NCBI GenBank assembly: GCA_965649115.1
Contig: CBFGJN010000002.1
Location: 987-64,986, forward strand
Length of the DNA stretch: 64,000 bases
Origin: a candidate division WOR-3 bacterium
Lineage (GTDB): Bacteria; Hydrothermota; Hydrothermia; LBFQ01; DSFT01
Direction of reading: 5' to 3'
The position numbers were made by a program, and so were the translations under genes. This document shows, in pieces, positions 2,747 through 53,370 of the stretch. The notes beneath the pieces were generated by a model. That model was given only the letters and a program-made list of their open reading frames with translations, ran no database searches and was not told the DNA's origin. Position 1 is the first letter of the stretch; every line of letters starts with the position of its first letter.

Positions 2747-2801
2747 GCAGAATTTTTGGACACAGCAAAAATAGAAATTCTCTTCCCTTTAAAATTTTAA
2801 T
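2747..2801 (+). promoter_or_regulatory. Predicted sigma70-like promoter for a leaderless transcript: -35-like TGGACA ... TTTAAAATTTTAAT immediately upstream of ATG (TAAAAT at -12..-7 relative to the A of ATG)
   Basis: The same architecture recurs at 9571..9606, 14901..14960(-), 19900..19926, 24718..24760(-), 27924..27966 (bidirectional), 30641..30676, 35901..35949, 41967..41990(-), 43383..43410(-), 43480..43498, 53090..53103 and 59950..59975(-). Confidence 0.55.
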
Positions 2802-3815
2802 ATGCTTTTTTATCTTATTAACTTTACAAGAGAAGATATTTATTTTGTTGATCAAAGTCTAAATTATGTTGTCGTTTTTACAGTAAATAAGAGAGATGAT
2901 AAAGGAGGTGTTGTAAGATATTATAATAAAAATTATAATCCAAATTATGTAATGTACGCAAGACCATTTGGTTATAAATGGAGTGTATGTAAAGATCCAG
3001 ATGGTGTTGAAAGGATGTGTTTAGACTTTCCTGATGCATATTCATTTTCTGTTTTACAAAAAGATACATCTACAATTTATATAAAAAAATTAAAAGATTT
3101 TCCTGACTCAGTTATTCCCGCAAATATAGATAAAAATGATAGTACAATTTATGTCTTTAATGCAAATGCAAGAATTTTTAAAGATAAATATGAAGAACTT
3201 GCGATGGTAATTGTTTTACCTTTAAAATTTCAAATTGTGGGATATTACTCAACGAGTGAGGGTAATTGGAAACAAGTAGGAAATACACTGGCATATTATG
3301 GCTCAAAAGTTCCTTCAAATAGTATATTTGTATTTTTTAAAGCAAAAGAGGACACATTATATAGAGAACTTGTTAAATTAATTCAAGAAGAAAGAGAAAA
3401 GAAAGAAGAAATTACTATTGAAAGAACTGAGAGAGGTTTGTTGGTTAGACTTCCAGAAAGTATATTATTTGAAAGTGGTTCAGCAGAAATTAAGGAAAGT
3501 GGCAAGGAAGTTATTAAAGAAATTTATAAGAAAATAGATTTTTCGAAAATTAAGGAATTGAGAGTAGAAGGACATACTGATAGTATTCCAATAATTGGAA
3601 AATTAACGGAAAAATATCCAACTAATTGGGAATTATCAACTGCTAGATCTTCTGCTGTTGTTAGATATTTAATTGAACTTGGGGCACCTAAGGAGAAATT
3701 AGCAGCTGTTGGTTATGCTGATGCAAGACCAATTGCAAGTAATTCAACACCTGAGGGGAGGGCAAAAAACAGGAGGGTTGAATTTATTATTATAAATGAA
3801 GAGAAACAACAATAA
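2802..3815 (+). CDS. OmpA/MotB C-terminal domain protein with an unknown conserved N-terminal domain (paralogue 1)
   Basis: The C-terminus reads TDSIPIIG...[20 protein letters not shown]...NRRVEFII, an OmpA_C-like peptidoglycan-binding signature. The first ~90 aa are shared with the next gene. The start codon follows a TTTAAAATTTTAAT box. Confidence 0.7.
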   Translation: MLFYLINFTREDIYFVDQSLNYVVVFTVNKRDDKGGVVRYYNKNYNPNYVMYARPFGYKWSVCKDPDGVERMCLDFPDAYSFSVLQKDTSTIYIKKLKDFPDSVIPANIDKNDSTIYVFNANARIFKDKYEELAMVIVLPLKFQIVGYYSTSEGNWKQVGNTLAYYGSKVPSNSIFVFFKAKEDTLYRELVKLIQEEREKKEEITIERTERGLLVRLPESILFESGSAEIKESGKEVIKEIYKKIDFSKIKELRVEGHTDSIPIIGKLTEKYPTNWELSTARSSAVVRYLIELGAPKEKLAAVGYADARPIASNSTPEGRAKNRRVEFIIINEEKQQ

Positions 3816-8622: not shown

Positions 8623-9367
8623 TATCTAAGCTATTTTCAATAGCAAATTGAAGATAAGCCCTTGCTATTCTTATGGATTTTATTATATCTCTACCTTTTG
8701 CCAAGTTAGCTGTTATAGCGGCAGAATAAGTACAACCTGTTCCATGAGTATTTTTTGTTTGAACAAATGGATAAACTAGCTCAATAAATTCATTATTATA
8801 ATAAATCAAATCTACAACTTTGTTTTCAAATGGTATGTGGCCACCTTTAATGACGACGCATCTAGCACCAAAACTACTTATAATTTTTGCACATTCTTTC
8901 ATATCATTTAAAGATTTTATTTCTAAATTTGTTATAGCCTTTGCCTCATTTACATTTGGTGTTATTATTAGTGCTAATGGTATAATTTCTTTTATTAAAG
9001 CTTCAATAGCGCTATCTTTGAGAAGTTTATCTCCACTCTTTGCTACCATTACGGGATCAACAACAACATTTTTAATTTTAAAATCTTTTATTGCCTTTGA
9101 TACTGAAATAATAATTTCTTCATTTGATAGCATTCCCGTTTTGGCAGCATCTATCCCTATATCTTCTGCTATGACTTTTATTTGATTATAAACGAACTGA
9201 CCAGGTGTATCATAAATATCATAAACGCCAAGTGTATTTTGTGCAGTTAAAGATGTTATAGCACTTAAACCATAGACACCAAATGCGGAAAATGTTTTTA
9301 AATCTGCTTGGACTCCAGCACCTCCTCCACTATCACTTCCAGCTATTGTTAGTGCTTTTGGAATCAT
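8579..9367 (-). CDS. thiD: Hydroxymethylpyrimidine/phosphomethylpyrimidine kinase
   Basis: N-terminus LTIAGSDSGGGAGVQADLKT and the PdxK/ThiD ribokinase-fold C-terminus (HGTGCTYSAAI). Confidence 0.9.
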   Translation of the reverse strand: MIPKALTIAGSDSGGGAGVQADLKTFSAFGVYGLSAITSLTAQNTLGVYDIYDTPGQFVYNQIKVIAEDIGIDAAKTGMLSNEEIIISVSKAIKDFKIKNVVVDPVMVAKSGDKLLKDSAIEALIKEIIPLALIITPNVNEAKAITNLEIKSLNDMKECAKIISSFGARCVVIKGGHIPFENKVVDLIYYNNEFIELVYPFVQTKNTHGTGCTYSAAITANLAKGRDIIKSIRIARAYLQFAIENSLDIGNGHGPLSHFLNL

Positions 9368-9606
9368 TTTAAAATTTTAATGGATAAATTGCTTATGTTT
9401 TTGCCTTGTTTAGTAATTCGGCAAGGGGGCTAAGAATTATTGCTTTGTCCAATAATTATTGTTAAATTCTTGATTATCAATAACTTATAAAAGCTTTGAG
9501 GAAATTATAGATTTAAATGGGTATTTATAAGGCGAAGGCTTAAATATAGAAATAATTATATTTTTAGAATTACTAGACAAACCAAAGAATTATAAGCTTT
9601 AAAATT

Positions 9607-14900: not shown

Positions 14901-14940
14901 TAGTTATTAAAATTTTAAAGTAGATTTAGTTCTAATTTTT

Positions 14941-15012
14941 GCTGTGTCTAGTAATTCTGAAATATAGATTATTTCTTATTTTGCCCGCCCACCCTGAAAA
15001 TAAGGCTTTGCC
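14941..15012 (-). repeat. A-type intergenic repeat module, full copy. Terminus GCTGTGTCTAGTAATTC, then an AT-rich palindromic region, then GCCCGCCCACCC and a short hairpin.
   Basis: Near-identical copies occur at 9518..9582(+), 24747..24824(-), 24901..24976(-), 30578..30650(+), 35838..35914(+), 39718..39790(+), 47419..47470(-) and 49463..49547(-). Confidence 0.8.
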
Positions 15013-15143
15013 CCCCTATAATCCCCCATAAAATCAATAATTTCTTTAAAAATTTTATAAGTTATTGACTATCAATCACTTAACACCATTTGCTAGACAA
15101 AGCATAATTATTTGCCTTGTCTAGTAATTAAGCCTTCCGCTTT

Positions 15144-15262
15144 AAAAAAACCCCAACTTTTGCTTTCGGAGGGGCATAGCTCCCCTTATCCCCATTAAAG
15201 CAATAATTTTCTTGAAATTTTAATTGATTATCAAGGACTTAACATTATTTATTGGACAAAGC
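15144..15262 (+). repeat. B-type intergenic repeat module, full copy. Sequence runs CCCCAACTTTTGCTTT, then a GGGG..CCCC hairpin, then TTGATTATCAA palindrome, ending TTATTGGACAAAGC.
   Basis: Copies or variants occur at 15005..15103(+), 24977..25043(+), 25508..25622(+), 47471..47541(+), 24825..24883(+, short) and 9441..9481(-, partial). Confidence 0.8.
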
Positions 15263-15298
15263 AGCAGGAGGACTTTATTTCACTTTAAAATTTCAAAC

Positions 15299-15871
15299 TT
15301 GAAGGAGAATTTAAGAGCTATTTTTTTATTGCCCATTATAAAGCTTTTTGTTAAGTTAAATATAAATCCTAATTTATTGACGATAATGACCCTCATTTTA
15401 AACTTAATTCCATTTTACTTTTATTCAAATAAAAATTTTTTATTGGGTGCTATCAGTTTAATTTTAATAAATTTATTTGATGCTATGGATGGAGAATTAG
15501 CAAGAATAACTAATAAGACTTCAAAATTAGGAGCTTTTTTAGATTCAAATTTTGATAGAATTTCAGAAGCTTTAATTTTTCTATCACTTATCATAGCTTT
15601 TAAAGAAAATTTTTTAATTCAAATACTTTTAATAATCTGTGGTTTTGGTTCATTTTTAATTAGTTATATAAGAGCTAGGGGTGAGTCATTGGGTGTTCTT
15701 ATTAAGGCAGGTCCTATGGAGAGAGCTGAAAGAATTTTTTTTATAGCGTTAATGACAATTTTTGTAAAATTTATTTTTTTGTTTCTTGTTATTTTCTCAA
15801 TTTTAATTTACATAACGATTATTAGGAGGATTTATGAGGGTTATAAAAAAATGAAGTTAAGTAATTTCTGA
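15299..15871 (+). CDS. CDP-alcohol phosphatidyltransferase (PgsA/PssA-like)
   Basis: Signature DAMDGELARITNKTSKLGAFLDSNFDRISE, i.e. D-G-x2-A-R-x8-G-x3-D-x3-D. The annotated ATG at 15224 lies inside a repeat module. A TTG at 15299 follows the TTTAAAATTTCAAAC box, and a downstream ATG at 15386 is an alternative start. Confidence 0.65.
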   Translation: MKENLRAIFLLPIIKLFVKLNINPNLLTIMTLILNLIPFYFYSNKNFLLGAISLILINLFDAMDGELARITNKTSKLGAFLDSNFDRISEALIFLSLIIAFKENFLIQILLIICGFGSFLISYIRARGESLGVLIKAGPMERAERIFFIALMTIFVKFIFLFLVIFSILIYITIIRRIYEGYKKMKLSNF

Positions 15872-16226
15872 ATTTTTCATCAATTTCAATTTTTTGCTTT
15901 TTAATTGGATCAAACATAACTTGGATTGTTGAACCTTTTGCACAAATTTCATTTTTTGAATTATATATTTCATAATCAATTTTAAAACTTGTTTTTCCTA
16001 TATTGCTAATCCAACAAACAATTTTTATTTTTTCAAGATATAGAGGTTTTAAATAGTCAATTTCTGCGTGTGCTACTACAAAATTATAATTAGGATTATC
16101 TTTATATAAATTTTCAAACATTTTAACTCTTGCTTGCTCAAAATAACTTAAATAAACAGCATTATTAACATGACCAAGTGGATCTAAATCACGATATTGA
16201 ACTTCAAACTCTACTTCAACTTTGAT
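15822..16226 (-). CDS. Acyl-CoA thioester hydrolase, YbgC/4HBT hotdog family (about 135 aa)
   Basis: The upstream in-frame extension IKVEVEFEVQYRDLDPLGHVNNAVYLSYFEQAR matches the YbgC N-terminus. There is no ATG, GTG or TTG between the in-frame stop and this segment, so the apparent start is ATC at 16226. Confidence 0.55.
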   Translation of the reverse strand: MKVEVEFEVQYRDLDPLGHVNNAVYLSYFEQARVKMFENLYKDNPNYNFVVAHAEIDYLKPLYLEKIKIVCWISNIGKTSFKIDYEIYNSKNEICAKGSTIQVMFDPIKKQKIEIDEKFRNYLTSFFYNPHKSS

Positions 16227-16270
16227 AGGGCTAAAATTTTATAGGAAGGCATAACCTTGGCATAAGATTG

Positions 16271-16307
16271 GACACAGCAAAAACTTATGCTTTAAAATTT
16301 TAGAACT
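16271..16307 (+). promoter_or_regulatory. Predicted promoter for tRNA-Asn: TGGACA, 16-bp spacer, TTTAAAAT, 9 bp to the mature tRNA 5' end
   Basis: Canonical -35/-10 spacing. The mirror arrangement (TTGGACACAGCA, 16 bp, TTTAAAATTTTCAAACT) precedes tRNA-Lys on the minus strand at 47390..47432. Confidence 0.6.
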
Positions 16308-16380
16308 GCCCCAGTAGCTCAACGGGTAGAGCGGTGGGCTGTTAACCCATAGGTTGCAGGTTCGAGTCCTGCCTGGGGCG
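16308..16380 (+). tRNA. tRNA-Asn (anticodon GTT)
   Basis: Cloverleaf folded by hand. Acceptor GCCCCAG/CTGGGGC, anticodon loop CTGTTAA, T-arm GCAGG-TTCGAGT-CCTGC, discriminator G, no encoded CCA. Confidence 0.9.
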
Positions 16381-16382
16381 TT

Positions 16383-16901
16383 ATGTTAATTTTTTTTCTG
16401 ATAGCTCAAAAAGGCGATACAAACAATATCTTATCAAAAATTATAGAAAATAAGAAACCTATTCTTGGAACTGATAAAGCTGAACTAAAAATAGTAATTT
16501 TTGATGACCCTGATTGTCCATTTTGTAGAAGAAGTATGCCACTTGTAAAGCAATTATATGAAAATAATAAAGATAAAGTCGCGGTTTATATAAGATGGTT
16601 TCCATTAGATATTCATCCAGATGCTAAAAGGAAAGCAAAAATTTTGGCTTGTTCAAATGATTACTTTAAAACAAAAGAAGAGTTAATAAAAGGTAATAAT
16701 GTAAAACCTGATATTCCAAATTGTGATGGAGAAAAAATTGTCCAAGAAGATTTAGATTATGGATATAAAATTGGTGTAAGTGGAACACCCACATTTGTCA
16801 TATTTACTAAAAGTGATACTGCACTAATAAGTGGTGCACCACCAGATTATGAAGTATTAAAAAACACACTTTCAAAGAGGTTCAAAATTGACCTCAAGTG
16901 A
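16383..16901 (+). CDS. Thioredoxin-fold thiol:disulfide oxidoreductase (DsbA-like)
   Basis: CPFC active-site motif (DDPDCPFCRRS). The ATG lies 2 nt after the tRNA-Asn 3' end. Confidence 0.7.
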   Translation: MLIFFLIAQKGDTNNILSKIIENKKPILGTDKAELKIVIFDDPDCPFCRRSMPLVKQLYENNKDKVAVYIRWFPLDIHPDAKRKAKILACSNDYFKTKEELIKGNNVKPDIPNCDGEKIVQEDLDYGYKIGVSGTPTFVIFTKSDTALISGAPPDYEVLKNTLSKRFKIDLK

Positions 16902-17596
16902 GCAAAAAATTTTTCTTATTTTTTCTTTTAACATCTTGTTTAAAACTTGATAATTCAAGTCCAAATGTTCCGAATTACAACGTTATTGCTAATTTAGTTA
17001 GTGGAAATGACACTCAATATGTATTTTTTGATAAAACGTACAAGCCTAATGAAGAACATCATTATGGACTTGAAGGTGCTAAAATTTTTATTTATAACAA
17101 TAATGTAAATTATCAATTCAATTATCCAAAACTAATAGATACAATAAACTACTATTATAGCCTTTTTAATCCAAATCCCAACGATAGTTTTTATCTAAAA
17201 GTTATAACACCAACAAATGAAACATTATTTTCAAAAACTTATATTCCTGGTTCTTTTCAAATAATTCAACCCTCTGACAATGAAACCATAACAATTCCAT
17301 CTAATAAACTTGTTATTTGGACAAGGAGTTCAAATGCTTACATTTATAAAATAAATGTTTATAAGCATTTAAGAGATAGCACGAGATTTGAAATTCCTTA
17401 TCTTTCAAATGATACATTTTCGGACTTGCTTAAATATCCTTATTTCTTTCCTGATAGTGGATTATGGACAATTTCTATTATGGCAATAAATGAACCACTT
17501 TATTATTATCTTAGTTTAGGTAAAGGAAACATAGATAATGCAGTTGGTGTTTTTGGTGCAGTTGTTTTAAGAAAAGTAAGAGTTTATGTTAAATAG
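16898..17596 (+). CDS. Hypothetical lipoprotein
   Basis: Signal peptide with lipobox LLTSC. No recognisable domain. Confidence 0.45.
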   Translation: MSKKFFLFFLLTSCLKLDNSSPNVPNYNVIANLVSGNDTQYVFFDKTYKPNEEHHYGLEGAKIFIYNNNVNYQFNYPKLIDTINYYYSLFNPNPNDSFYLKVITPTNETLFSKTYIPGSFQIIQPSDNETITIPSNKLVIWTRSSNAYIYKINVYKHLRDSTRFEIPYLSNDTFSDLLKYPYFFPDSGLWTISIMAINEPLYYYLSLGKGNIDNAVGVFGAVVLRKVRVYVK

Positions 17597-18374
17597 ATTA
17601 TTTTTTATTTTATTTTTCTTTGGATGTTATAATTATCAAAAAAGTGAAAATTTAAGAGTTGTTTCATTAGTTCCATCAGCAACGGAAATAATTTATCTTT
17701 TGAATGCTGATAGTGTTTTAGTTGGAATAACTAATCAGGATAATTACAATAAATTTAAAGTTGGAGATATGTTAAATCCAGATTATGAAAAAATAATGAA
17801 ATTAAAACCAAATTTAATTATTTTAACTATGCCCTTACAAAAAAAAGTTCTTGAAGAAATCTCAAAGCTTAACATTGATACATTAATCATTAGCCCACAG
17901 AGTATTGATGATATTTTTAAAGATATATTAAGAATTGGTAAAGTTTTAAGAAAAGAAGAGAGGGCATTATTTTTAATTGATAGTTTAAAAAATGTTTTAA
18001 ATGAGATAAAAAATAATTCCAAAAATTTTGAAAATAATAAAGTTTTTTATGAAATATGGGATAATCCACTTTGGACAGCTGGAAATAAAACATTTATAAA
18101 TGATGCTTTAAAAATTTTGAATTTAAAAAATATATTTGAGGATAGGGAAGGTTATTTTATTGTTAGTGAGGAAGAGGTTATCAAAAGAAATCCTGATATT
18201 ATAATAATTGCTCATTCAAATGTTAAAATTAGTGATGTAAAAAATCGTAAATTTTGGCAAAATATAAATGCTGTAAAAAATAATAAAATTATTTTTGTTG
18301 ATGAAAATTCTTTTAATAAACCAAGTCCGAATATAATTAAAGCTATAAAATTTTTGAATTCACAACTTTACTAA
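17586..18374 (+). CDS. ABC transporter periplasmic substrate-binding protein, BtuF/FecB-like (cobalamin/siderophore type)
   Basis: LRVVSLVPSATEIIYLL...VGIT pattern typical of class III binding proteins. Confidence 0.7.
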   Translation: MLNRLFFILFFFGCYNYQKSENLRVVSLVPSATEIIYLLNADSVLVGITNQDNYNKFKVGDMLNPDYEKIMKLKPNLIILTMPLQKKVLEEISKLNIDTLIISPQSIDDIFKDILRIGKVLRKEERALFLIDSLKNVLNEIKNNSKNFENNKVFYEIWDNPLWTAGNKTFINDALKILNLKNIFEDREGYFIVSEEEVIKRNPDIIIIAHSNVKISDVKNRKFWQNINAVKNNKIIFVDENSFNKPSPNIIKAIKFLNSQLY

Positions 18375-18386
18375 AAGGAGGAAAAT

Positions 18387-19811
18387 ATGAAAGAGCTTTT
18401 AAGGGATATTTTTAGAAAAAGGACATATGACCCTGAAAAAACGCAGTTTGTAAGAAAGCTTGGTGTTCTTGATCTTACGGGAATAGGTATAGGTGCTATT
18501 ATAGGTGCTGGTATTTTTGTAATTACAGGGCAAGTTGCTGCTAATTATGCTGGTCCTGCAATTGTTTTATCGTTTATTCTTGCGGGATTAACTGTTCTTG
18601 TAAGTGCTCTTGTTTATGCTGAATTAAGTTCAAGATTTCCAATAACGGGTAGTGCTTATAGTTATACTTATACTTCATTTGGAGAGTTTTTGGCTTGGCT
18701 TGTTGGTTGGAACTTACTTCTTGAATATGGAGTTTCGGTTGCAGCAGTAGCAAGTGGATGGTCTGGCTATTTTCGATCATTATTAGAAAAAAGTTTTGGT
18801 ATTCATTTCCCTGATATTATTAGTGGGAAATCACCTATTTTTTTAAATTTACATTTTGATTTAATAGCATTTCTTGTAGTTATAGCAGTTTTCATTTTGT
18901 TATTTATTGGAATAAAGGAAAGTTCAAGTGTTAATTTATTTATTGTTTTTATAAAATTATTTACACTTGGTTTATTTTTAGCAGTAGGTTTGTTTATTGT
19001 TGGTATTGATTTGAATAATCTTAATCCTTTTATACCTGAACCTTCAAAGAATTTTAAGGGTGAAGATGCTTATGGATGGTTTGGTATTTTAAGAGCTGCA
19101 AGTATTATTATTTTTGCTTATCTTGGATTTGATGCAGTTTCAACAGTTGCAGAAGAGGCTAAAAATCCTACAAAAACTGTTCCTTTGGGTGTTTTATTAT
19201 CACTTTTAATTAGCACATTTTTATATATTAGTGTTAGTTTTACATTAACTGCTATTGCTCCTTATAAGGAACTTAATGTTTCTGATCCTTTGGCGAAAGC
19301 TATGTACATGCATGGACAAGTTCTTGTTGGGAATATCATAGCCATTGGTGCTATAATAACAATTACAAGTGTTATGATTACTATGGGACTTGGATTTACA
19401 AGAATTGCTTATGCATTAGCAAGAGATGGATTACTATTTAGTGCATTTTCAAAAGTTCATCCAAGGTTTAAAACACCTTATATTTCAACAATAGCAGGTG
19501 CAATTTTGCTTAGTATTTTAGCTGGTTTCGTTCCGTTGACTGAACTTGCAGAACTTGTAAATGTAGGAACATTATTTGCCTACTTTGTAGTTGGACTTTC
19601 AGTTTTATATTTAAGAATAAAGAATGAACCAGGTGGAACATATAGAGTTCCATTTCCTTGGGTGCTTATCCCTATAAATTTGGCTTTAATAATTTTTATA
19701 ACTTCTGGCCTTCCACCATTAACTTGGATAAGATTTTTTGTTTGGCTTATTATAGGAATTTTAATTTATGTGTTTTATGGTTATCATAAGTCTAGAAAAG
19801 TTTGGCGTTAA
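18387..19811 (+). CDS. Amino acid permease (APC superfamily)
   Basis: 12-TM topology and a GAGIFV...G motif near the N-terminus. A GGAGG RBS is present. Confidence 0.85.
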   Translation: MKELLRDIFRKRTYDPEKTQFVRKLGVLDLTGIGIGAIIGAGIFVITGQVAANYAGPAIVLSFILAGLTVLVSALVYAELSSRFPITGSAYSYTYTSFGEFLAWLVGWNLLLEYGVSVAAVASGWSGYFRSLLEKSFGIHFPDIISGKSPIFLNLHFDLIAFLVVIAVFILLFIGIKESSSVNLFIVFIKLFTLGLFLAVGLFIVGIDLNNLNPFIPEPSKNFKGEDAYGWFGILRAASIIIFAYLGFDAVSTVAEEAKNPTKTVPLGVLLSLLISTFLYISVSFTLTAIAPYKELNVSDPLAKAMYMHGQVLVGNIIAIGAIITITSVMITMGLGFTRIAYALARDGLLFSAFSKVHPRFKTPYISTIAGAILLSILAGFVPLTELAELVNVGTLFAYFVVGLSVLYLRIKNEPGGTYRVPFPWVLIPINLALIIFITSGLPPLTWIRFFVWLIIGILIYVFYGYHKSRKVWR

Positions 19812-24717: not shown

Positions 24718-24746
24718 AAAAATAATTTTAAAGCACAACTTTTTAC

Positions 24747-25043
24747 TGCTTTGTCTAGTAATTCTAAAAATATGATTATTTCTATATTTTCCCCACCCAC
24801 CCTATATTTAAGCCTTTGGCTTTAAAATACCCATTTTTCGGCAGAGGGGGGCTTTTTACTTAACACTATTTACTAGACAAAGCTACTTTTTACTGATTTT
24901 GCCTTGTCTAAGAATTCTAAAAATATATATTTTACTATATTTTTCCCACCCGCCCTGAAATTAAGCTTTTCCGCTTAAAAATACCCCAACTTTTGCCTAT
25001 AGGGGGCTTTCACCCCCATTAAATCCTATTTATTGGACAAAGC
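24747..25043. repeat. Tandem array of A(-), B(+) short, A(-), B(+) modules filling the spacer between two minus-strand genes
   Basis: Each module was recognised by alignment to the copies listed above. Confidence 0.75.
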
Positions 25044-25485: not shown

Positions 25486-25628
25486 TGTTCTAATGCTGTG
25501 TCCGTATTTCGGCTTTGGGGGGCAAAGCTCCCCATTAAAACCCAGCATAAAATCAAGAATTTCAGAAAATTTTTTATAAATCATTGATTATCAAGCATTT
25601 AACAACATTTATTGGACAAAGCAACATT

Positions 25629-26594
25629 CTAATTAAAAATTCCATTTTCAGTTATATAACCTGTTATAAGATGTTTTGGTGTTATATCAAAAGCATAGTT
25701 TAAAACATTCGCACTTTCAATAGTAATTAAAAAGTTCTTGAATTTTATAACTTCATCTTTTTTTCTCTTTTCTATTATAACTTCTTCTAATTTTGAACTT
25801 TTGTCAATTGTTGATGTTGGGAAAGCTGTCCAAAAAGGAATTTTATAATAATTACATAAAATTGCGATATTTAATGTTCCAATTTTATTTATTAATGTTC
25901 CATCGCTCAAAACTCTATCTGCTCCAACAATTGCTAAATCTATTTCTCCTTTTGACATAATAAAAGCAATAGAATTATCTGTTATTAATTCGTATGGAAT
26001 TTTTAATTTTTCAAGTTCATATATTGTAAGTCTTGAACCTTGTAAATAAGGTCTTGTTTCAGGAACAATAACTTTATTAATTAAATTATTTTCAAATGCT
26101 TTATAGATAATTCCAAGAGCAGTTCCAATTCCCGTTGTTGCTAAAAATCCTGTATTACAATAAGTTAAGACTGAACTTTTCTTTTTGAAAATTTTTAATC
26201 CATTTTGAGCAATTTTAAGGCACCTTTCTTTTTCTTCGTTATCCAAATTTATTACGAATCTGAATAATTCTTCTTGTAAATTTTTAGAATTTAAAATGAT
26301 TTTTTCAATTTCTTTTAAAGTATTAAATAAATTTACAGCTGTTGGTCTTGAATTTTTTAGAATTTCAATAGATTTTAATAATTTTTCTTTATTGTTTTTT
26401 TTCATTGCTTCTATTAAAATAGCATAACTACTTGCAATTGCTATTAATGGTGCCCCTCTTATTGCCATATTTTTTATTAAATTTGACATTTGATAAGCAC
26501 TTTTAACCTCTATGTAAATTTCATTAAATGGAAGTTTTCTTTGGTCTAAAATAAATAATTTGTTATTTTCAAAAATTAATGGTTTTGGTATCAT
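25629..26594 (-). CDS. mtnA: Methylthioribose-1-phosphate isomerase / eIF-2B alpha-beta-delta family
   Basis: Family-typical core (IRGAPLIAIA, GADRV..DG...NKIGT). Confidence 0.75.
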   Translation of the reverse strand: MIPKPLIFENNKLFILDQRKLPFNEIYIEVKSAYQMSNLIKNMAIRGAPLIAIASSYAILIEAMKKNNKEKLLKSIEILKNSRPTAVNLFNTLKEIEKIILNSKNLQEELFRFVINLDNEEKERCLKIAQNGLKIFKKKSSVLTYCNTGFLATTGIGTALGIIYKAFENNLINKVIVPETRPYLQGSRLTIYELEKLKIPYELITDNSIAFIMSKGEIDLAIVGADRVLSDGTLINKIGTLNIAILCNYYKIPFWTAFPTSTIDKSSKLEEVIIEKRKKDEVIKFKNFLITIESANVLNYAFDITPKHLITGYITENGIFN

Positions 26595-35673: not shown

Positions 35674-35949
35674 TATCCGTTAGCCATTAATTTTATTTTT
35701 GCTTATAAATATCTTTCTTTTTTGTATTCTCTCAAAACCCCCCAAAGCAAAAGAATAGAGTATTTTAGGGCAGGTGGGTAAATATAGAAGACAACTGCAA
35801 CGATTGTTTTAATGGGGGGATTATAGGGCGAAGTTTTAAGCCATAGGCTTATTTTCAGGGTGGGCAGGGAAAAATATAGAAAAATATATATTTTTAGAAT
35901 TACTAGACACAGCAGAGGACAAATTCTTAAAGCTTTAAACTTTTCAGAT

Positions 35950-39579: not shown

Positions 39580-39717
39580 TAGCAGAAATAACCAATAACT
39601 TCAAAGCCCTCTCTGCTGAAAAATAGGCATATATTTGTCTAGTAACTTGTGAAAACTTAATGAAATTATTTATTTAATTTAGGGCTTTGCCCCATAGCCT
39701 GAAAATGGGTATTTATA

Positions 39718-39790
39718 AGTGGAAGGCTTAATATCAGGGCGGGGAAAATATAATAAAATAAATAGTTTTAGAATTACTAGACACAGCAAG
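39718..39790 (+). repeat. A-type module copy whose promoter-like end points into the 3' end of the convergent proline dehydrogenase gene
   Basis: GGGCGGGGAAAATATAATAAAATAAATAGTTTTAGAATTACTAGACACAGCA followed by a 17-bp spacer and TAAAAAT. Confidence 0.7.
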
Positions 39791-39816
39791 ACAAAACGGA
39801 TAAAAATCAATAATTT

Positions 39817-41966: not shown

Positions 41967-42032
41967 TTTTAAAATTTTAAAGGCTTTTTGTAAGTTATAT
42001 TTATTTCTATATTTTGCCCACCCGCCCTATAT

Positions 42033-43382
42033 TCAAGGCTTCGCCTTTAAAAAACCCCATCTATTGAAAGCAAACTTTTCCTTTATAAATTTATAAATTA
42101 AAAAGTTAGAAATGAGACCATGTCTTTTAGCTATTTCATATGCTCTTTTTTCCCAGCCTTTTATGATATATTTAGCAACTAAATCTTGTTTTCTGTGCTT
42201 AACAATTAGTTTTAAATCCTTATTTAAAATTGCTAAAAATGTAGGTTTTTTAATTTGTAAAATGAAATTTTTGGCTTCTTTTAATTTCCCTTCAATATAA
42301 AGAGCAAATGCTTTTGCCAACTTATAGTTATCATCATCAAATTCTCTATTTACAATATCAATTTCTATGGTTTTTATTTCCAATATAAATCTCAAGTGAT
42401 TCCCTTTTAAAAAGTAAGACAAAGCTTTTAAAATTTTAAAATAAATACTATCGTCTGAAATTCTTGAAAATTCTTCAAAATTTCCTAAGTGGAATTTTAG
42501 TTTTTCATCTTTAAATAATAAATGTGCTTTTTTAATATGTCCTAAACTTACAAGAATAGAATATATTAGTTTTGAAAGCTCACTATCTTTTAAATTTTTA
42601 TATGATTTAATCCACCTTGAAAAAATTGGAAATAGTTTCTTATAAACTTCACTATCATAATAAAGACTATTTAAAATCAATAATAAAATTGGTTTTTTAA
42701 TTTGCTCTGGGAGTTTTAAAAATTCATTTAAATGCCTTTTAAAAATTTTTTTTATTTCATTATAATTACCAGATGCTCTTAAAAACATAATTTCAGGAAT
42801 AAATAAACTATAATATGTTAAAAGAAATTTTCTTTTTAATGCTAATTCTTTGTATTCCCTTATTTTATAAATCATTTCCTTGGTTGTTATTAAAATTGTT
42901 TTAGAATGGAAAATTTTTGAATAAATATAAGAAAATTTATAAACTACTAGATTGATGGGCAGTAAATTATCAGGAAGTTTCAATAAAATATCATAATCTT
43001 TTTCACTTGAAGGAATAAAGTGTTTTAAAAATTTTTTTAGATTTTTCAAATCATTTTTTTCAAATAAATAATGAACAAGTTGATTTATCTGCTTATTTTC
43101 TTTAAATCCATAAATATCATAAAGTGAAAGTTTAGAATAAATAGTAGAAATTGGCATTTTAAAAATTTTTGACAAATCTTTTAGATTTAAAAATGGGTTT
43201 TTCTCAAAGTAAATATAAATTTTATATGCTTCTTTGTCATATTCAAAAAAATTATTCTTTCTTTTAATTCTTGAAATTGTTGCTGGACTTAAATTTAAAA
43301 TTCTTGATATTTCTCTTATTTTAATCCCCTTTTTTATCATTTCATAAGCTTTAAACTTCTTTATAATATCGGTTTGTTTCAT
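42033..43382 (-). CDS. HTH-domain protein with long helical/TPR-like C-terminal region
   Basis: N-terminal HTH (IREISRILNLSPATISRIKRK). The start was set at the Met preceded by TTTATAATTTTCAATATT. Confidence 0.4.
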   Translation of the reverse strand: MKQTDIIKKFKAYEMIKKGIKIREISRILNLSPATISRIKRKNNFFEYDKEAYKIYIYFEKNPFLNLKDLSKIFKMPISTIYSKLSLYDIYGFKENKQINQLVHYLFEKNDLKNLKKFLKHFIPSSEKDYDILLKLPDNLLPINLVVYKFSYIYSKIFHSKTILITTKEMIYKIREYKELALKRKFLLTYYSLFIPEIMFLRASGNYNEIKKIFKRHLNEFLKLPEQIKKPILLLILNSLYYDSEVYKKLFPIFSRWIKSYKNLKDSELSKLIYSILVSLGHIKKAHLLFKDEKLKFHLGNFEEFSRISDDSIYFKILKALSYFLKGNHLRFILEIKTIEIDIVNREFDDDNYKLAKAFALYIEGKLKEAKNFILQIKKPTFLAILNKDLKLIVKHRKQDLVAKYIIKGWEKRAYEIAKRHGLISNFLIYKFIKEKFAFNRWGFLKAKP

Positions 43383-46367: not shown

Positions 46368-46903
46368 AGAAATAAACTATAAAATTTTTTTGGTTCAATG
46401 ATTTCAATTCCTAAATCCATGGCTAATTTAATCTGTCCTTCATCAGCTGTTGATAATATAGCTTTTTGCTCAATAGCAAGTAAAATCGTATCTACATCTT
46501 CTTTTGAATCAACAATTCCTTCCCTCATAACCCTTCTATAATTTTCTCTCAAATATTTTATTGCTTCATCTTTGTTTTCAAATTCTCTAACAGCTTTTTC
46601 ACTAACTCTTAAACCTCTATTTATTCTATCTCTCATTTCTGATAAAAAATTATATAGAACAATTCCAGGGATTTTTACTTTATATCTATTTGGTGTTTTA
46701 ACTCTGAAAAATTTTTGAAAAAGGTCGGGAATTTTTATAAATGTTGAAATTTCACTTAATGTACTTGGTGTTAAATAAACTTTAATTTCTTTATTATTTT
46801 TAAGCTTTTCAATTAACCAGTTTAATGCGCCTTCTATTGAATTTGAAATTTCCTTAAAGCTATAAGGGTTTGTTATGACACTTGTATCTATTACAATTTT
46901 CAT
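46364..46903 (-). CDS. PIN-like domain protein
   Basis: IVIDTSV N-terminus and a late acidic TADEG region. Weak assignment. Confidence 0.35.
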   Translation of the reverse strand: MKIVIDTSVITNPYSFKEISNSIEGALNWLIEKLKNNKEIKVYLTPSTLSEISTFIKIPDLFQKFFRVKTPNRYKVKIPGIVLYNFLSEMRDRINRGLRVSEKAVREFENKDEAIKYLRENYRRVMREGIVDSKEDVDTILLAIEQKAILSTADEGQIKLAMDLGIEIIEPKKFYSLFL

Positions 46904-47313
46904 TAATTATAAGCACAATTATTTGCATATATTTCAACATTTTGAAATACTTTTAAATTTACTTTAAATGTATCAGGTGTTTGTCCCTGACAGAAGTAGG
47001 ACCTAGTTTCCTTTATTCCATTAACTTTAACTGAAAATTTCACAATTCCATTTTCATGACCACTTGGAATACCTATTTTGATTGTATCAAATGTTATTAC
47101 TTTTGAATTTGAGCTTTTCGTAGGACCACTTATTGTTAGGTTTCCATCATAAGTCGCATATATTGTCCAATTTTGAACAGTTTGCATAGAAGAATCAACA
47201 TATATTTTTCCAGAAACTTTTAAACTATCAACAATAATAATTTCTTCACTTTTTTTTGGACCTGATGAACAAGCAATTAAAATAATAGTAATAATAGGGA
47301 ATAAAAATCTCAT
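46903..47313 (-). CDS. Hypothetical lipoprotein
   Basis: Signal peptide with lipobox LIACSS. The ATG lies 2 nt downstream of the tRNA-Lys 3' end. Confidence 0.45.
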   Translation of the reverse strand: MRFLFPIITIILIACSSGPKKSEEIIIVDSLKVSGKIYVDSSMQTVQNWTIYATYDGNLTISGPTKSSNSKVITFDTIKIGIPSGHENGIVKFSVKVNGIKETRSYFCQGQTPDTFKVNLKVFQNVEIYANNCAYN

Positions 47314-47315
47314 AA

Positions 47316-47389: not shown

Positions 47390-47618
47390 AAGTTTGAAAA
47401 TTTTAAAGGACTAAAAATTGCTGTGTCCAAAAATTCTGGAATTATTTATTTTTCAAAAGCCTTCGGCTTTAAAATACCCATTTTTTGCTTTGGGGGGCAG
47501 AGCCCCCCTTAATAATCCCCCCATAATTATTGGACAAAGCAACTAAAAATTAGTTTTTTGAAAAACCCTGTCTTATGCCTTGCCCCCCTAAACCCCCCGA
47601 TAGATCAATTGATTGTCA

Positions 47619-48302: not shown

Positions 48303-49414
48303 TCTACATCCGAATGTTCTACTTTCTTAATATCTTTTCCCTTTAATTTTGATATAATCATAGGTAATGTTGTGTATTCAAGTTCATCCTCTGGTAATCT
48401 TGATGGTTCAAATATACCTTGTCTCCTCATTAAATTTGCTATTTCATATGCAATTCTTCTTGGTTCATCAAAAGCTGGGTCATCAAATAAATCTCTTGGT
48501 CCAATTAGTTTGCCATTTGAGAGTTGAAATCCAAGAGCAACTACTCTTGGGGGACCATCAAATCTTGAGACATTACTTTGATGCATAGCAACTGGCATTA
48601 GAGGTCCCATATGGGAACCACGCATCCATCCTTCTACAATAAATGGTCTTGCAAATGGTTCTAATATCTCACCAACAGCCGGAAATCCGCTTTGAGCTCT
48701 AACAATCATAACAGGGTCATCTTTGCCTACATATTTTCCTGCTATAAGTGATAATTTTTGGCTTGAGGCAACAGCTGCAATTTCCTTGTCTTTTCTTCTG
48801 AAAACCTTTGTAATTACATATCTTGAAATACTACCTATTAATGCTAATAAATCATATAATCCCTCTGGTGTTGGAATTCTATAAGTTTCACCTTCTTTAA
48901 CATCCAAGACTTCAAATTCAAATCCTTCATGCATTGATGGGTCAATTACTAATCCCGAGGTATTCATAGGATTAGCAAACATTTCATAAAGTGGTATATT
49001 CCAAGCACTTGGAGATGTTTTATCAGCCATAAATACAATTATTGGTTCAGAGGGTCTTTCATTTATTTCCATTTCTGCAACACCAGGACCCATTCCTTTG
49101 ACATTCCCACTAAATGCATCTGATAGTAAATCTTGTCCAGCACCATATAGTTTTAGTTCTTTGGCAACATTAGTTGCTTCTTTGAAGGCTTCCCAAGCAA
49201 GTTTATGAATTTGCTCGTTATCAGGACCATAATTATGTGTCATTATTAAATTTATATCATCACCAACTCTACCTACAAAGTAATCTATAATTAACCCTTT
49301 CTCTTTCGCTGATTGTAGTTTCTCTTCACATGCTTCTATGAGTTTTGGATGTGTTGATGAATGTCCTACATAACCTCCTACATCAGCTTTTATTACACTT
49401 ATTGTAATTTTCAT
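48299..49414 (-). CDS. fbp: Fructose-1,6-bisphosphate aldolase/phosphatase (bifunctional class V FBPase, archaeal type)
   Basis: N-terminus MKITISVIKADVGGYVGHSSTHP and an overall length of about 370 aa. AGGAGG RBS. Confidence 0.85.
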   Translation of the reverse strand: MKITISVIKADVGGYVGHSSTHPKLIEACEEKLQSAKEKGLIIDYFVGRVGDDINLIMTHNYGPDNEQIHKLAWEAFKEATNVAKELKLYGAGQDLLSDAFSGNVKGMGPGVAEMEINERPSEPIIVFMADKTSPSAWNIPLYEMFANPMNTSGLVIDPSMHEGFEFEVLDVKEGETYRIPTPEGLYDLLALIGSISRYVITKVFRRKDKEIAAVASSQKLSLIAGKYVGKDDPVMIVRAQSGFPAVGEILEPFARPFIVEGWMRGSHMGPLMPVAMHQSNVSRFDGPPRVVALGFQLSNGKLIGPRDLFDDPAFDEPRRIAYEIANLMRRQGIFEPSRLPEDELEYTTLPMIISKLKGKDIKKVEHSDVD

Positions 49415-49654
49415 TTTTTAACCTCCTTTTAAAGATTGAAAATTTTAAAGGACTTAAATTTTGCTGTGTCTAAAAATTATGAAAAATATATTTTTCTATA
49501 TTTCTCCGAACCACCCTGAAATCAAGCCTTAGGCTTTAAAATGCCCATATTTTCCGCTTTGGAGGTCAAAGCCACCCTAAAAACTATAATTTCAAAAAAT
49601 TTTTCGGAAATTAAAGCTAACTTTTTTATTTTAAGCTTTAAACTTTTAGCGTTT

Positions 49655-50589: not shown

Positions 50590-53094
50590 ATGTTCTTAAA
50601 TAATGAGCGATTTACCGATAAAGCAAAAAGAGCGCTTCTCTTAGCAAGAGAGGAAGCTTTAAGATTTGGAAATGAATATATAGGAACTGAACATCTTTTG
50701 CTTGGAATACTTAATGTTGGTGAAAGTATCGCTATTTCTGCTCTTACAAATTTGGGTGTGGATATAGAAGAGCTTAGAATAGCTGTTGAACATTCCATTC
50801 ATAGAGGTGAATTTTCAAGGAGAGATCTTTCTGCTGAACTTCCACTTAATGCTTCATCAAAGAAGGCTATAAATGGTGCTATTGAGGAAGCAAGAAGAAT
50901 GGGTCAAACATTTGTTGGGCCAGAGCATTTGCTTCTTGGATTGCTAAAAGATAGAAGATCACTTGCTGCTCAAATTCTTGAAAGTATGGGTATTGATTAT
51001 GATAGTATAAGACAAGAGATAATTAGATTGATAAATCAAAATAGATATGAAGAATCTATGGGTTATTCATCTGGATATAGTTATTTTCCTTCTTATGAGC
51101 AAAGAAGAACAACTACACCACAAACACCAAGGCAATCAAATACAAGAGTTTTAGATAGTTTTTCAATAGATTTGACGCAATTAGCAAGGGAAGGTAAATT
51201 GGACCCTGTAATTGGTAGGGAGGAGGAGATTGAAAGAGTTATTCAAGTTCTTTCAAGGAGAAAGAAAAATAATCCTGTTTTAATTGGTGAGCCTGGTGTT
51301 GGTAAAACTGCTATTGTTGAAGGTCTTGCACAGAGAATAGCGAATGATGAAGTTCCTCCTGTATTAAGAAATAAGAGAATTGTTGCCCTTGATCTTGCTG
51401 CTATTGTGGCGGGAACAAAGTATAGGGGTCAATTTGAAGAAAGAATAAAAGCTATATTAAATGAAGTTATAAATGCTCCTGATGTTATACTATTTATAGA
51501 TGAGCTTCATACAATGATTGGAGCGGGAGCTGCGGAAGGTGCATTAGATGCTGCTAATATCTTAAAACCTGCACTTGCAAGAGGGCAAATAAGACTTATT
51601 GGTGCTACTACACTTGAAGAATATAAAAAATATATTGAAAGAGATGGAGCACTTGAAAGAAGATTTCAACCAATAATTATTGAACCTCCATCTGTTGAAG
51701 AAACTATTAGAATTCTCGAAGGTTTAAAAAGGGAATATGAAGAATATCATGGAGTAATATATACACAAGAGGCAATTGAAGCTGCTGCCAAACTTTCTGA
51801 TAGATACATTCAAGATAGATATTTGCCTGATAAGGCTATTGATGTTTTAGATGAAGCAGGTGCAATGGTTAAGCTTACTAAGCAGATTGACGATCCAGAA
51901 TTAAACAAACTTCAAAGAGAATTAGAACAAATTAGAAAAAGAAAAGCGTTTGCAGTTAGAAAAGAGGAATATAACTTAGCAGAAAAATTGAAACATAAAG
52001 AGGAAGAAATTCTTGAAAAAATTAGAAAGAGAAAAATGGAGATAAAAAAGGAAACTGCTGAGGTTACTTATGAAGATGTTGCTAAGGTAATATCCAGGTG
52101 GACAGGCATACCACTAACTCAAATAAGTTCAGATGAGGAAACAAAATTATTAAAACTTGAAGAAGAACTTAAAAAATATGTAATAGGTCAAGATTATGCT
52201 ATTAGCTTATTAGCAAAAGCTATTAGAAGGAATAGAGCAGGTATTAAAGATCCTAAAAGACCTATTGGTTCGTTTGTATTTCTTGGTCCAACAGGTGTTG
52301 GTAAAACTGAACTTGCTAAAAGTTTAGCAAGAGTACTATTTGGAAGTGAAGATGCACTTATAAGAATAGATATGAGTGAGTACATGGAAAGACATAATGT
52401 TTCAAGACTTATAGGCTCACCTCCTGGTTATGTTGGATATGAAGAGGGTGGTCAACTAACTGAAAAAGTTAGAAGAAAACCTTATAGTGTTATTCTTTTT
52501 GATGAAATTGAAAAGGCACATCCTGATGTATTTAATATATTGCTTCAAATTCTTGAAGATGGTATATTAACTGATGGACTTGGTAGGACAGTTAGTTTCA
52601 GAAATACAATTATAATAATGACATCAAATATAGGAACAAGACAAATTAGAGAAACAAAACATTTAGGTTTTTCAGTAAAAGAAGAAAAGGAACTTGATTA
52701 TAATGAGCTTGAAAAGTTATTGAAAGATGAATTTAAGAAGGTTGTTTCTCCAGAATTTTTAAATAGAATAGATGAAGTTATTGTTTTTAGACCATTAAAC
52801 AAAGAAGATTTGAAGAAAATTATTGAAGTTATGTTAAGAGATTTAAGAGAAAGATTGAAAGAAAAACATATTACGATAAAAGTTTCAGATAGATTAAAGG
52901 AATTTTTGGTTAATCAAAGCTATGACCCTGAATTTGGAGCAAGACCATTAAGAAGAGCTATAAGAAAATATATAGAGGAGCCAATAAGTGAAGCAATAAT
53001 AAAAGGTGAAGTTAAGGAAAATTCTGATGTTCTAATTGATTTAAATGAGAATAATGAAATTATTTTTAGAACGGATGTTTTAAGTGTGCTTTAA
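50590..53094 (+). CDS. clpC: ATP-dependent Clp protease ATP-binding subunit ClpC (ClpA/B family)
   Basis: Two Clp_N repeats, two AAA+ modules ([18 protein letters not shown]), a short middle domain and an HLGFS ClpP-docking loop. Confidence 0.9.
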
Positions 53095-53103
53095 AATTTC
53101 AAA

Positions 53104-53370
53104 ATGCCAAAAGTAAAATTATCTGTTAAGAAAAGAGAAAGACAAAACCTAAAGAGAAGACTTAGAAATTTATGGTACAAAAAGAGAATTAAAGATGCTA
53201 TAAAGCGTTTTCTAAAAGCAAGTCTTGAAGAAAGAAAGGAAATTATAAGGGAAATATATGAATATGTAGATAAGGCAGTTAAGAAAGGTGTTATTCATAA
53301 AAATAAGGGAGCGAGAATAAAGAGTAAATATGCCAAGTTATGCTTAGAAGGACAAAACAAAGGGAAGTGA
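53104..53370 (+). CDS. rpsT: 30S ribosomal protein S20
   Basis: Basic 88 aa protein, KKRERQNLKRRLRN. Preceded by TTTAAAATTTCAAA. Confidence 0.7.
   Translation: MPKVKLSVKKRERQNLKRRLRNLWYKKRIKDAIKRFLKASLEERKEIIREIYEYVDKAVKKGVIHKNKGARIKSKYAKLCLEGQNKGK

Follow-up and report, generated by a model that had tools for sequence, protein, structure and literature searches.

In a 64,000-nucleotide (nt) stretch of DNA from a candidate division WOR-3 bacterium (contig CBFGJN010000002.1; the whole stretch, hereafter the window, has a G+C content of 27%), a tRNA-Asn gene without an encoded CCA end stands two nucleotides before the ATG of a gene for a thioredoxin-fold, DsbA/DsbC-like protein. We think it probable that promoter, tRNA and open reading frame (ORF) form a single unit, from which RNase P and an RNase Z-type enzyme would release the tRNA and a near-leaderless mRNA that enters the leaderless translation pathway. 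The adjacency of tRNA and start codon is a rule of the AT-rich WOR-3 lineage and not a coincidence, with an ATG or TTG that opens a long ORF lying 0-4 nt past the discriminator base at 11 of 15 distinct tRNA loci. Identical proteins are present in two assemblies labelled 'candidate division WOR-3 bacterium' (GCA_039803085.1 and GCA_965648865.1). The features at the tRNA-Asn junction are as follows:

16290-16298 (+): CTTTAAAAT promoter box, with a -10-like TAAAAT at 16293-16298; recurs before nearly all tRNAs of the lineage
16308-16380 (+): tRNA-Asn(GTT), 73 nt, discriminator G, CCA not encoded (Rfam RF00005, 76 bits; ARAGORN)
16381-16382 (+): UU spacer from discriminator to AUG, read from the sequence and kept in locus L014 of a second species
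16383-16901 (+): thioredoxin-fold DsbA/DsbC-like gene (CPFC), 172 amino acids, first ORF of the unit (Pfam)
16898-19811 (+): genes for a DUF4249 lipoprotein, a Peripla_BP_2 protein and an amino-acid permease, with overlapping or abutting ORFs (Pfam)
16268-16280 (+): TTGGACACAGCAA, terminal part of a dispersed intergenic repeat recognized from its copies, not essential to the unit

The first-pass annotation had placed the tRNA at 16308-16380 with no CCA, followed by TT and an ATG at 16383, and this arrangement was borne out by Rfam, ARAGORN and the sequence itself. Scores against RF00005 were 76 bits for tRNA-Asn and 79.4 bits for the other tRNA of the window, tRNA-Lys, compared with a threshold of 29, and the anticodons are GTT and TTT, respectively. 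ARAGORN gave bounds of 16307-16381 for tRNA-Asn; the 7/7-bp acceptor stem and discriminator G73 fit 16308-16380, and using the T-loop as a ruler places the discriminator at G16380, with TT at 16381-16382 and the start codon directly after it at 16383-16385. The ORF matches the Pfam families Thioredoxin_2 (2.7e-11, 44 bits), Thioredoxin_4 (43 bits) and DSBA (26.6 bits), and its CPFC active site (residues 45-48) is invariant across the orthologue alignment. Since the frame is closed by a TAG 33 nt upstream of the ATG, within tRNA-Asn, and the next in-frame ATG, GTG or TTG is codon 52, beyond CPFC, ATG 16383 is the sole usable start.

A mis-called start had also been raised in the first-pass annotation. 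No downstream start precedes CPFC, the short N-terminus is common to the WOR-3 orthologues, and L014, which keeps the order tRNA-Asn, TT, ATG, differs from the window at three places in the first 13 codons, all of them synonymous third-position changes. More generally, a pseudogene tRNA, a chimeric junction or a start elsewhere could have created the arrangement artefactually, given that the sequences are metagenome-assembled genomes and that the hydrophobic segment at the N-terminus, MLIFFLIAQK, is unusually short. Set against this, the segment recurs in every aligned orthologue, there is no alternative start, the two tRNAs score 76 and 79 bits and have perfect acceptor stems, and the same junctions occur in independent NCBI, ENA and JGI assemblies. 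The tRNA scores, orthologues, independent assemblies and unique start essentially refute an artefact, which we regard as extremely improbable.

The tRNA abuts the ORF without room for a promoter, a terminator or a ribosome-binding site, both here (2 nt) and at the 11 of 15 loci with a gap of 0-4 nt. Because neither a terminator nor a promoter fits into 2 nt, and because the final bases of tRNA-Asn, GCCTGGGGCGTT, are unlike the stereotyped promoter box, co-transcription of tRNA and ORF is near-certain on geometric grounds. An independent promoter, which the first-pass annotation had named as a competing possibility, fares poorly: besides the 2-nt gap, the -12 to -7 region before ATG 16383 is GCCTGGGG-like rather than TAnnnT, in contrast to the lineage's stereotyped CTTTAAAAT box. 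The DUF4249 lipoprotein, Peripla_BP_2 and permease genes presumably share the transcript. The 20 nt before ATG 16383, which are tRNA sequence (cgagtcctgcctggggcgtt), contain no GGAGG-type match. We also considered a Shine-Dalgarno (SD) mimic in the 3' strand of the acceptor stem and rejected it, as tRNA-Asn has GGGG there and tRNA-Asp, tRNA-Pro and tRNA-Met have nothing comparable; across tRNA types, no consistent G-rich element precedes the start codons. In the predicted fold of the precursor, 3 nt separate the end of the acceptor helix from the AUG, and no structure forms at the coding start.

The same layout had been reported for tRNA-Lys, and there the match is exact, with the tRNA at 47389-47316 on the minus strand, then TT, then an ATG at 47313:

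47400-47408 (-): CTTTAAAAT promoter box of the tRNA-Lys unit, kept in loci L131 and L133-L136
47316-47389 (-): tRNA-Lys(TTT), discriminator A, CCA not encoded (Rfam, 79.4 bits; ARAGORN)
47314-47315 (-): UU spacer, identical in five orthologous loci
46903-47313 (-): lipoprotein gene (MRFLFPIITIILIAC...), ATG at 47313, 2 nt past tRNA-Lys (lipobox signal peptide)

The lipobox signal peptide MRFLFPIITIILIAC begins at codon 1, the next in-frame start is codon 43, and the lipoprotein gene is followed by PIN_5 and Obg genes. The junction of tRNA-Lys, TT, ATG and lipoprotein gene is identical in L131, L133/L134, L135 and L136, which encode proteins 70-100% identical to that of the window, and the DNA 5' of the promoter box diverges among these loci, with loss of TTGGACACAGCAA.

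To sample the lineage, metagenome contigs were scanned with a pattern built from this architecture, yielding 120 loci, of which 91 have a G+C content below 32%; scanning genome contigs with the promoter pattern gave only three chance matches (Tychonema, Chryseobacterium and Rhodohalobacter). ARAGORN was run on all fetched loci, with discriminators placed by the T-loop ruler, and 15 distinct 3' ends of tRNA clusters were obtained for the AT-rich lineage. The survey of tRNA-to-ATG distances that the first-pass annotation had suggested thus came out positive, the 11 adjacent starts being ATG or TTG at 0-4 nt. In the same DNA, 2.2% of random positions have a start (ORF of at least 50 codons) within 0-4 nt, and a binomial estimate for 11 of 15 at this rate is ~1e-15. 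The 11 junctions are:

tRNA-Asn: spacer TT, ATG, thioredoxin-fold protein
tRNA-Lys: spacer TT, ATG, lipoprotein
tRNA-Arg(CCT): spacer TT, ATG, 922-amino-acid Peptidase_S8
tRNA-Val: spacer CT, ATG, pyridoxal-phosphate (PLP) enzyme
tRNA-Asp: spacer T, ATG, Ldh/Mdh
tRNA-Met: spacer T, ATG, 85-amino-acid ORF with no family assigned
tRNA-Pro: spacer T, ATG, aconitase
tRNA-Phe: spacer T, TTG, 221-amino-acid ORF with no Pfam match
tRNA-Cys: spacer CTA, TTG, HMGL-like protein
tRNA-Ala: spacer TTCT, TTG, membrane protein
tRNA-Glu: no spacer, TTG, ankyrin-repeat lipoprotein

Several of these starts are pinned by domain edges, with residue 4 aligned to profile position 2 in Ldh_1_N, residue 2 to position 1 in HMGL-like and residue 12 to position 2 in PALP, and others by lipobox signal peptides. 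In the ORF behind tRNA-Ala, substitutions between two species are of the coding type from the first codons onward. Since domain boundaries and coding-type substitutions reach the first codons, several tRNA-adjacent starts cannot be shifted downstream.

We additionally examined the 3' flanks of the lineage's tRNAs. None of 16 encodes CCA, and all 16 have a U at +1 or +2 past the discriminator (12 have T at +1, and 4 have C followed by T), for which base composition predicts ~59% per site and hence an estimated ~2e-4 for 16 of 16. Processing of CCA-less tRNA precursors by RNase Z in Bacillus subtilis was reportedly described by Pellegrini in 2003, and we know of no B. subtilis trailer that serves as an mRNA start codon, unlike the WOR-3 trailers. 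As described in PMC10100781 (citing Pellegrini 2012), B. subtilis RNase Z substrates resemble the WOR-3 tRNAs in that CCA is not encoded and a uracil lies within 2 nt past the discriminator; such a U stimulates the enzyme ~200-fold on CCA-less precursors, which it trims back to the discriminator. Elsewhere in the sampled loci, the tandem tRNA pairs Ser-Ser (L096, 10175-10357) and Met-Met (L051, 5627-5782) stand 4 and 9 nt apart and therefore need precise endonucleolytic separation. On the 5' side, upstream ORFs enter the tRNA in L094 (tRNA-Val) and L134 (3755-3829, tRNA-Arg-CCT), where the stop codon is the tRNA's conserved U8-A9-G10 (TAG), so that RNase P cutting of read-through transcripts would leave non-stop mRNAs; the promoter box of the tRNA lies within the final codons of the gene upstream, which in L134 is rpe.

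The flanks also bear on a different scheme, in which there would be no precise RNase Z cut and a downstream endonuclease followed by exonucleolytic trimming would turn each transcript into either a tRNA or an mRNA, balancing or regulating the two. CCA-less tRNAs are matured even in some bacteria with no obvious RNase Z, P. acnes being one (PMC3848588), and no RNase Z gene was seen in the sampled loci (~1 Mb, partial). We nevertheless find this scheme quite unlikely, for at 11 of 15 loci it would cost the first ORF its start codon, the affected genes including housekeeping enzymes such as Ldh/Mdh, aconitase and the PLP enzyme, and it sits poorly with a junction kept across species and a universal U at +1 or +2.

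The promoter box offers an independent view of how these genes are expressed. Both tRNAs of the window are preceded by CTTTAAAAT(TTT), 9-10 nt from the tRNA 5' end, and across the lineage nearly every tRNA has CTTTAAAAT 7-18 nt upstream. Before tRNA-Asn, TTTAAAAT occupies 16291-16298, and the start of transcription is predicted at ~16304-16305. Across the loci CTTTAAAAT occurs 397 times, and in 172 cases a start codon (ORF of at least 80 codons) follows 6-10 nt downstream, compared with 2 of 397 in a reverse-orientation control. At non-redundant sites, a start 5-11 nt downstream was found in 173 of 390 (44%; ATG 137, TTG 29, GTG 7). A start codon whose first base lies ~7 nt past a -10 hexamer is the signature of a leaderless mRNA, and the 44% figure thus argues that such mRNAs are common here. 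Judged by this geometry, promoter-proximal genes of the lineage appear to be expressed mainly through leaderless or near-leaderless transcripts, which implies that predicted leaderless mRNAs are widespread in WOR-3, including some with UUG starts (17% of such sites).

We rejected the idea that CTTTAAAAT acts at the RNA level as a ribosome-binding signal. Because it precedes untranslated tRNAs as well as the long, SD-containing leader of an FBP aldolase/phosphatase gene, it is a transcription signal of the -10 type. The latter gene (49414-49473, minus strand) has the same box, a 27-nt leader and a perfect AAGGAGG, so that SD-led and leaderless initiation coexist in one genome. A 16S 3' end with the anti-SD CCTCC in L008 was not used, as the taxon of that contig is uncertain. 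Within the window, CTTTAAAAT also lies 6-7 nt before an ATG or TTG at 2787-2804 (+), 9352-9369 (-), 15283-15301 (+) and 53089-53105 (+). The third of these belongs to a CDP-alcohol phosphatidyltransferase gene (15224-15871, plus strand), for which the mechanical ORF list starts at TTG 15224; the ORF would then contain its own promoter, and the box at 15283-15291 and the NCBI call favour TTG 15299, 7 nt past the box. A 4HBT thioesterase gene divergent from tRNA-Asn (15822-16226, minus strand) has no canonical start that keeps its domain; its NCBI call begins at ATC 16226, 9 nt past a TAAAAT box, and it may use a non-canonical start on a leaderless transcript. In L126/L127, from a relative with 53% G+C, the AT-rich boxes GCTTTAAAAT and CCTTAAAAT (~100-275) stand before tRNA-Val and a leaderless thioredoxin-fold gene, indicating that the promoter consensus is kept over a wide compositional range of the phylum.

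Comparison of thioredoxin-fold orthologues connects the two arrangements. The tRNA-less orthologues in L125 (71% identical) and L129/L130 (75%) have CTTTAAAAT, 7 nt and ATG, and L126 (60% identical, in the 53% G+C relative) has tRNA-Val and then a CCTTAAAAT box of its own, 6 nt and ATG. Leaderless use in the lineage is thus supported by promoter geometry (173/390 versus 2/397), with which these tRNA-less orthologues agree. In the window a tRNA apparently occupies the interval from promoter to ATG, in a gene whose counterparts in relatives are promoter-leaderless, and that one gene should be either promoter-leaderless or tRNA-interposed is as expected if removal of the tRNA regenerates a leaderless mRNA.

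These orthologues also speak to a further alternative, which treats the junctions as a by-product of compaction. Streamlining would have pushed tRNAs against ORFs that are translated on the intact tRNA-mRNA precursor, by SD-independent initiation at A/U-rich, unstructured starts of the Bacteroidetes type, and excision of the tRNA would be irrelevant or even harmful to expression. WOR-3 has features reminiscent of the Fibrobacteres-Chlorobi-Bacteroidetes group, genes are tightly packed (4-nt overlaps, 4-9-nt tRNA-tRNA spacers), coding starts are indeed A/U-rich and unstructured, and a clear SD is found at only ~20% of crude ORF starts in the window. However, judging from the predicted fold, a folded tRNA 1-5 nt before the start would fill the space of the 30S subunit upstream of the P site, and the box 7 nt from the ATG in tRNA-less orthologues indicates that upstream RNA is not needed. 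In addition, the tRNA spacers of 0-4 nt mirror the leaders of 0-5 nt implied by promoter geometry (transcription start 7 nt past the box), and the universal U past the discriminator points to precise endonucleolytic cleavage. On this evidence we consider translation of the intact precursor unlikely, while granting it some weight.

The dispersed repeat upstream proved to be separable from the unit. Copies of TTGGACACAGCAA with at most two mismatches number 11 in the window, against 1.2 expected. The first-pass annotation had called TTGGACACAGCAA an 'element terminus' and had given the motif spacing as 16 bp and then 9 bp to the tRNA; the distance of 9 nt from TTTAAAAT to tRNA-Asn stands, but the gap between TTGGACACAGCAA and TTTAAAAT is 10 nt (18-19 nt to TAAAAT if a -35 hexamer is counted). 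Its spacing to the -10 box is bimodal, at 9-10 or 17-18 nt, and it is missing upstream of the orthologous tRNA-Lys in L135 and L136, where box and tRNA stay. We therefore rejected it as a required -35 element; as a part of the unit it is dispensable. The repeat is ~80-150 nt long and modular, with TTGCT(T/G)TGTC(C/T)A(A/G) ends in inverted orientation and the further modules GGGTGGGC/GCCCACCC, a AAGCCTTnGGCTT hairpin and a GGGGGGCAGAGCCCCCC hairpin. It often adjoins promoter boxes and looks like a mobile element of the MITE (miniature inverted-repeat transposable element) or REP (repetitive extragenic palindromic) kind, being present or absent at orthologous sites of related species. It occupies the following positions in the window:

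Dispersed repeat: 9440-9590, 14940-15110, 24740-25030, 25500-25630, 35810-35920
Dispersed repeat, continued: 39690-39800, 41970-42055, 47418-47545, 49461-49590

In the processing model that we favour, RNA polymerase would start ~7 nt past CTTTAAAAT and transcribe in turn a leader of 3-4 nt, tRNA-Asn without a CCA, the UU spacer, the thioredoxin-fold gene and its downstream neighbours. RNase P would remove the short 5' leader, and an RNase Z-type endonuclease, favoured by the U after the discriminator, would cut at the discriminator or 1-2 nt beyond. Such a cut leaves a 5'-monophosphate on the trailer; it would free the tRNA for CCA addition and yield an mRNA that begins with the monophosphate and has 0-2 nt of leader. 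This mRNA would be translated by the leaderless pathway, which the lineage seems already to use for ~40% of its promoter-proximal genes. Of this model, the junction geometry, the start codons, their recurrence and conservation and the promoter-to-ATG spacing of the tRNA-less orthologues are shown here, and the nucleases, the exact cut site and the mode of initiation are inferred. In E. coli, a 5'-phosphate and an AUG near the 5' end favour leaderless initiation, according to PMC9031893 (citing Giliberti 2012 and Krishnan 2010).

Several points weigh against this model. Four of the 15 loci are exceptions, namely Gln (9 nt), the Met-Met tandem (10 nt), Arg(ACG) and the Ser-Ser tandem, and strong SD sites are also used, such as the AAGGAGG in the leader of the FBP aldolase/phosphatase gene. 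The ~1 Mb partial sample of lineage DNA yielded neither RNase Z nor RNase P RNA: a search of the sampled loci, which amount to less than a whole genome, for RNase Z (ORFs with HxHxDH) and for the RNase P RNA core GGAAAGTCC returned only coding-like chance matches and two unrelated metallo-beta-lactamase-fold proteins. Leaderless initiation in E. coli works poorly with leaders of 1-4 nt and with UUG starts, and the lineage's putative tolerance of both is deduced from promoter geometry. Finally, the mRNA may be destabilized by its 5'-monophosphate end.

The mitochondrial tRNA punctuation model, reportedly due to Ojala, Montoya and Attardi in 1981 and said to involve RNase P and RNase Z/ELAC2, is the obvious comparison, and the first-pass annotation had described the junction as mitochondrial logic in a bacterium. 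This description holds in that a CCA-less tRNA abuts the start, and fails in that the tRNA heads an operon and does not separate every gene. As in mitochondria, CCA-less tRNAs abut ORFs, their excision would set the mRNA 5' end, leaders are 0-3 nt without an SD, and some upstream ORFs run into the tRNA (L094, L134). Unlike mitochondria, WOR-3 has a bacterial chromosome in which almost all tRNAs are preceded by a promoter of their own and stand first in an operon, and there is no genome-length transcript; the downstream genes are polycistronic with complete stop codons, SD-led genes coexist with them, and the WOR-3 arrangement is known here from sequence alone. A stronger proposal is that a mitochondrion-like rule evolved independently in AT-rich WOR-3, most tRNAs doubling as the 5' processing signal of an operon and the RNase Z cut being obligatory, since it would convert an untranslatable precursor into a leaderless mRNA. 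We regard the case for this proposal as evenly balanced; under it, an RNase Z cut just past the U or UU spacer would possibly give an exact 5'-pAUG, and dozens of operons would depend for their expression on tRNA promoters and on the capacity for tRNA processing.

Among other known systems, E. coli mixed operons such as thrU-tyrU-glyT-thrT-tufB and secG-leuU likewise have one promoter for tRNA and protein gene and separate the two endonucleolytically, as described in PMC2241853. In E. coli, unlike in WOR-3, CCA is encoded, spacers run to tens to hundreds of nt, an SD leader is kept or the tRNA lies 3' of the ORF, and separation is not required for the mRNA to be translatable. Primary leaderless mRNAs of Actinobacteria and Deinococcus (PMC4633059, PMC4007540, PMC9031893) similarly begin at or near the start codon and lack an SD, but their 5' ends arise by transcription initiation and carry a triphosphate, whereas the WOR-3 ends would arise by tRNA 3' processing and carry a monophosphate. 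The nearest prokaryotic precedent among the literature searched is the tRNA-Val/C/D-box sRNA8 dicistron of Nanoarchaeum equitans (PMC3491384), for which an RNase Z cut at the tRNA 3' end has been proposed to generate the 5' end of the neighbouring RNA; it differs in that the organism is an archaeon, the downstream RNA is small and non-coding, and single cases rather than most tRNA loci are concerned. In the full-text literature searched, coverage of which is incomplete, we found mitochondrial, plant and archaeal cases only, with no bacterial precedent for a tRNA-punctuated leaderless mRNA and no report of leaderless genes in WOR-3.

The components are therefore ordinary, namely co-transcription of tRNA and mRNA, CCA-less RNase Z substrates and leaderless mRNAs; what differs is that they come together in a bacterial chromosome, that this is the rule at most tRNA loci, and that the tRNA, with a promoter of its own, leads an operon. 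To our knowledge, tRNA punctuation with leaderless translation has been regarded as a peculiarity of organelles, and the accepted origin of bacterial leaderless mRNAs is transcription initiation or, controversially, cleavage by toxins. In practical terms, gene callers and models of promoters and ribosome-binding sites for WOR-3 and related uncultured phyla should permit starts directly after tRNAs or CTTTAAAAT boxes.

Taken together, our analysis, if correct, describes a natural bacterial system in which tRNA 3' processing makes the translatable 5' ends of mRNAs. It bears on the tolerance of leaderless initiation for 5'-monophosphate ends, 1-4-nt leaders and UUG starts, and on the co-regulation of tRNA and mRNA output. 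Given the apparent interposition of a tRNA where relatives have a promoter-leaderless gene, it also bears on how the arrangement evolved, and on a possible origin of mitochondrial gene expression.

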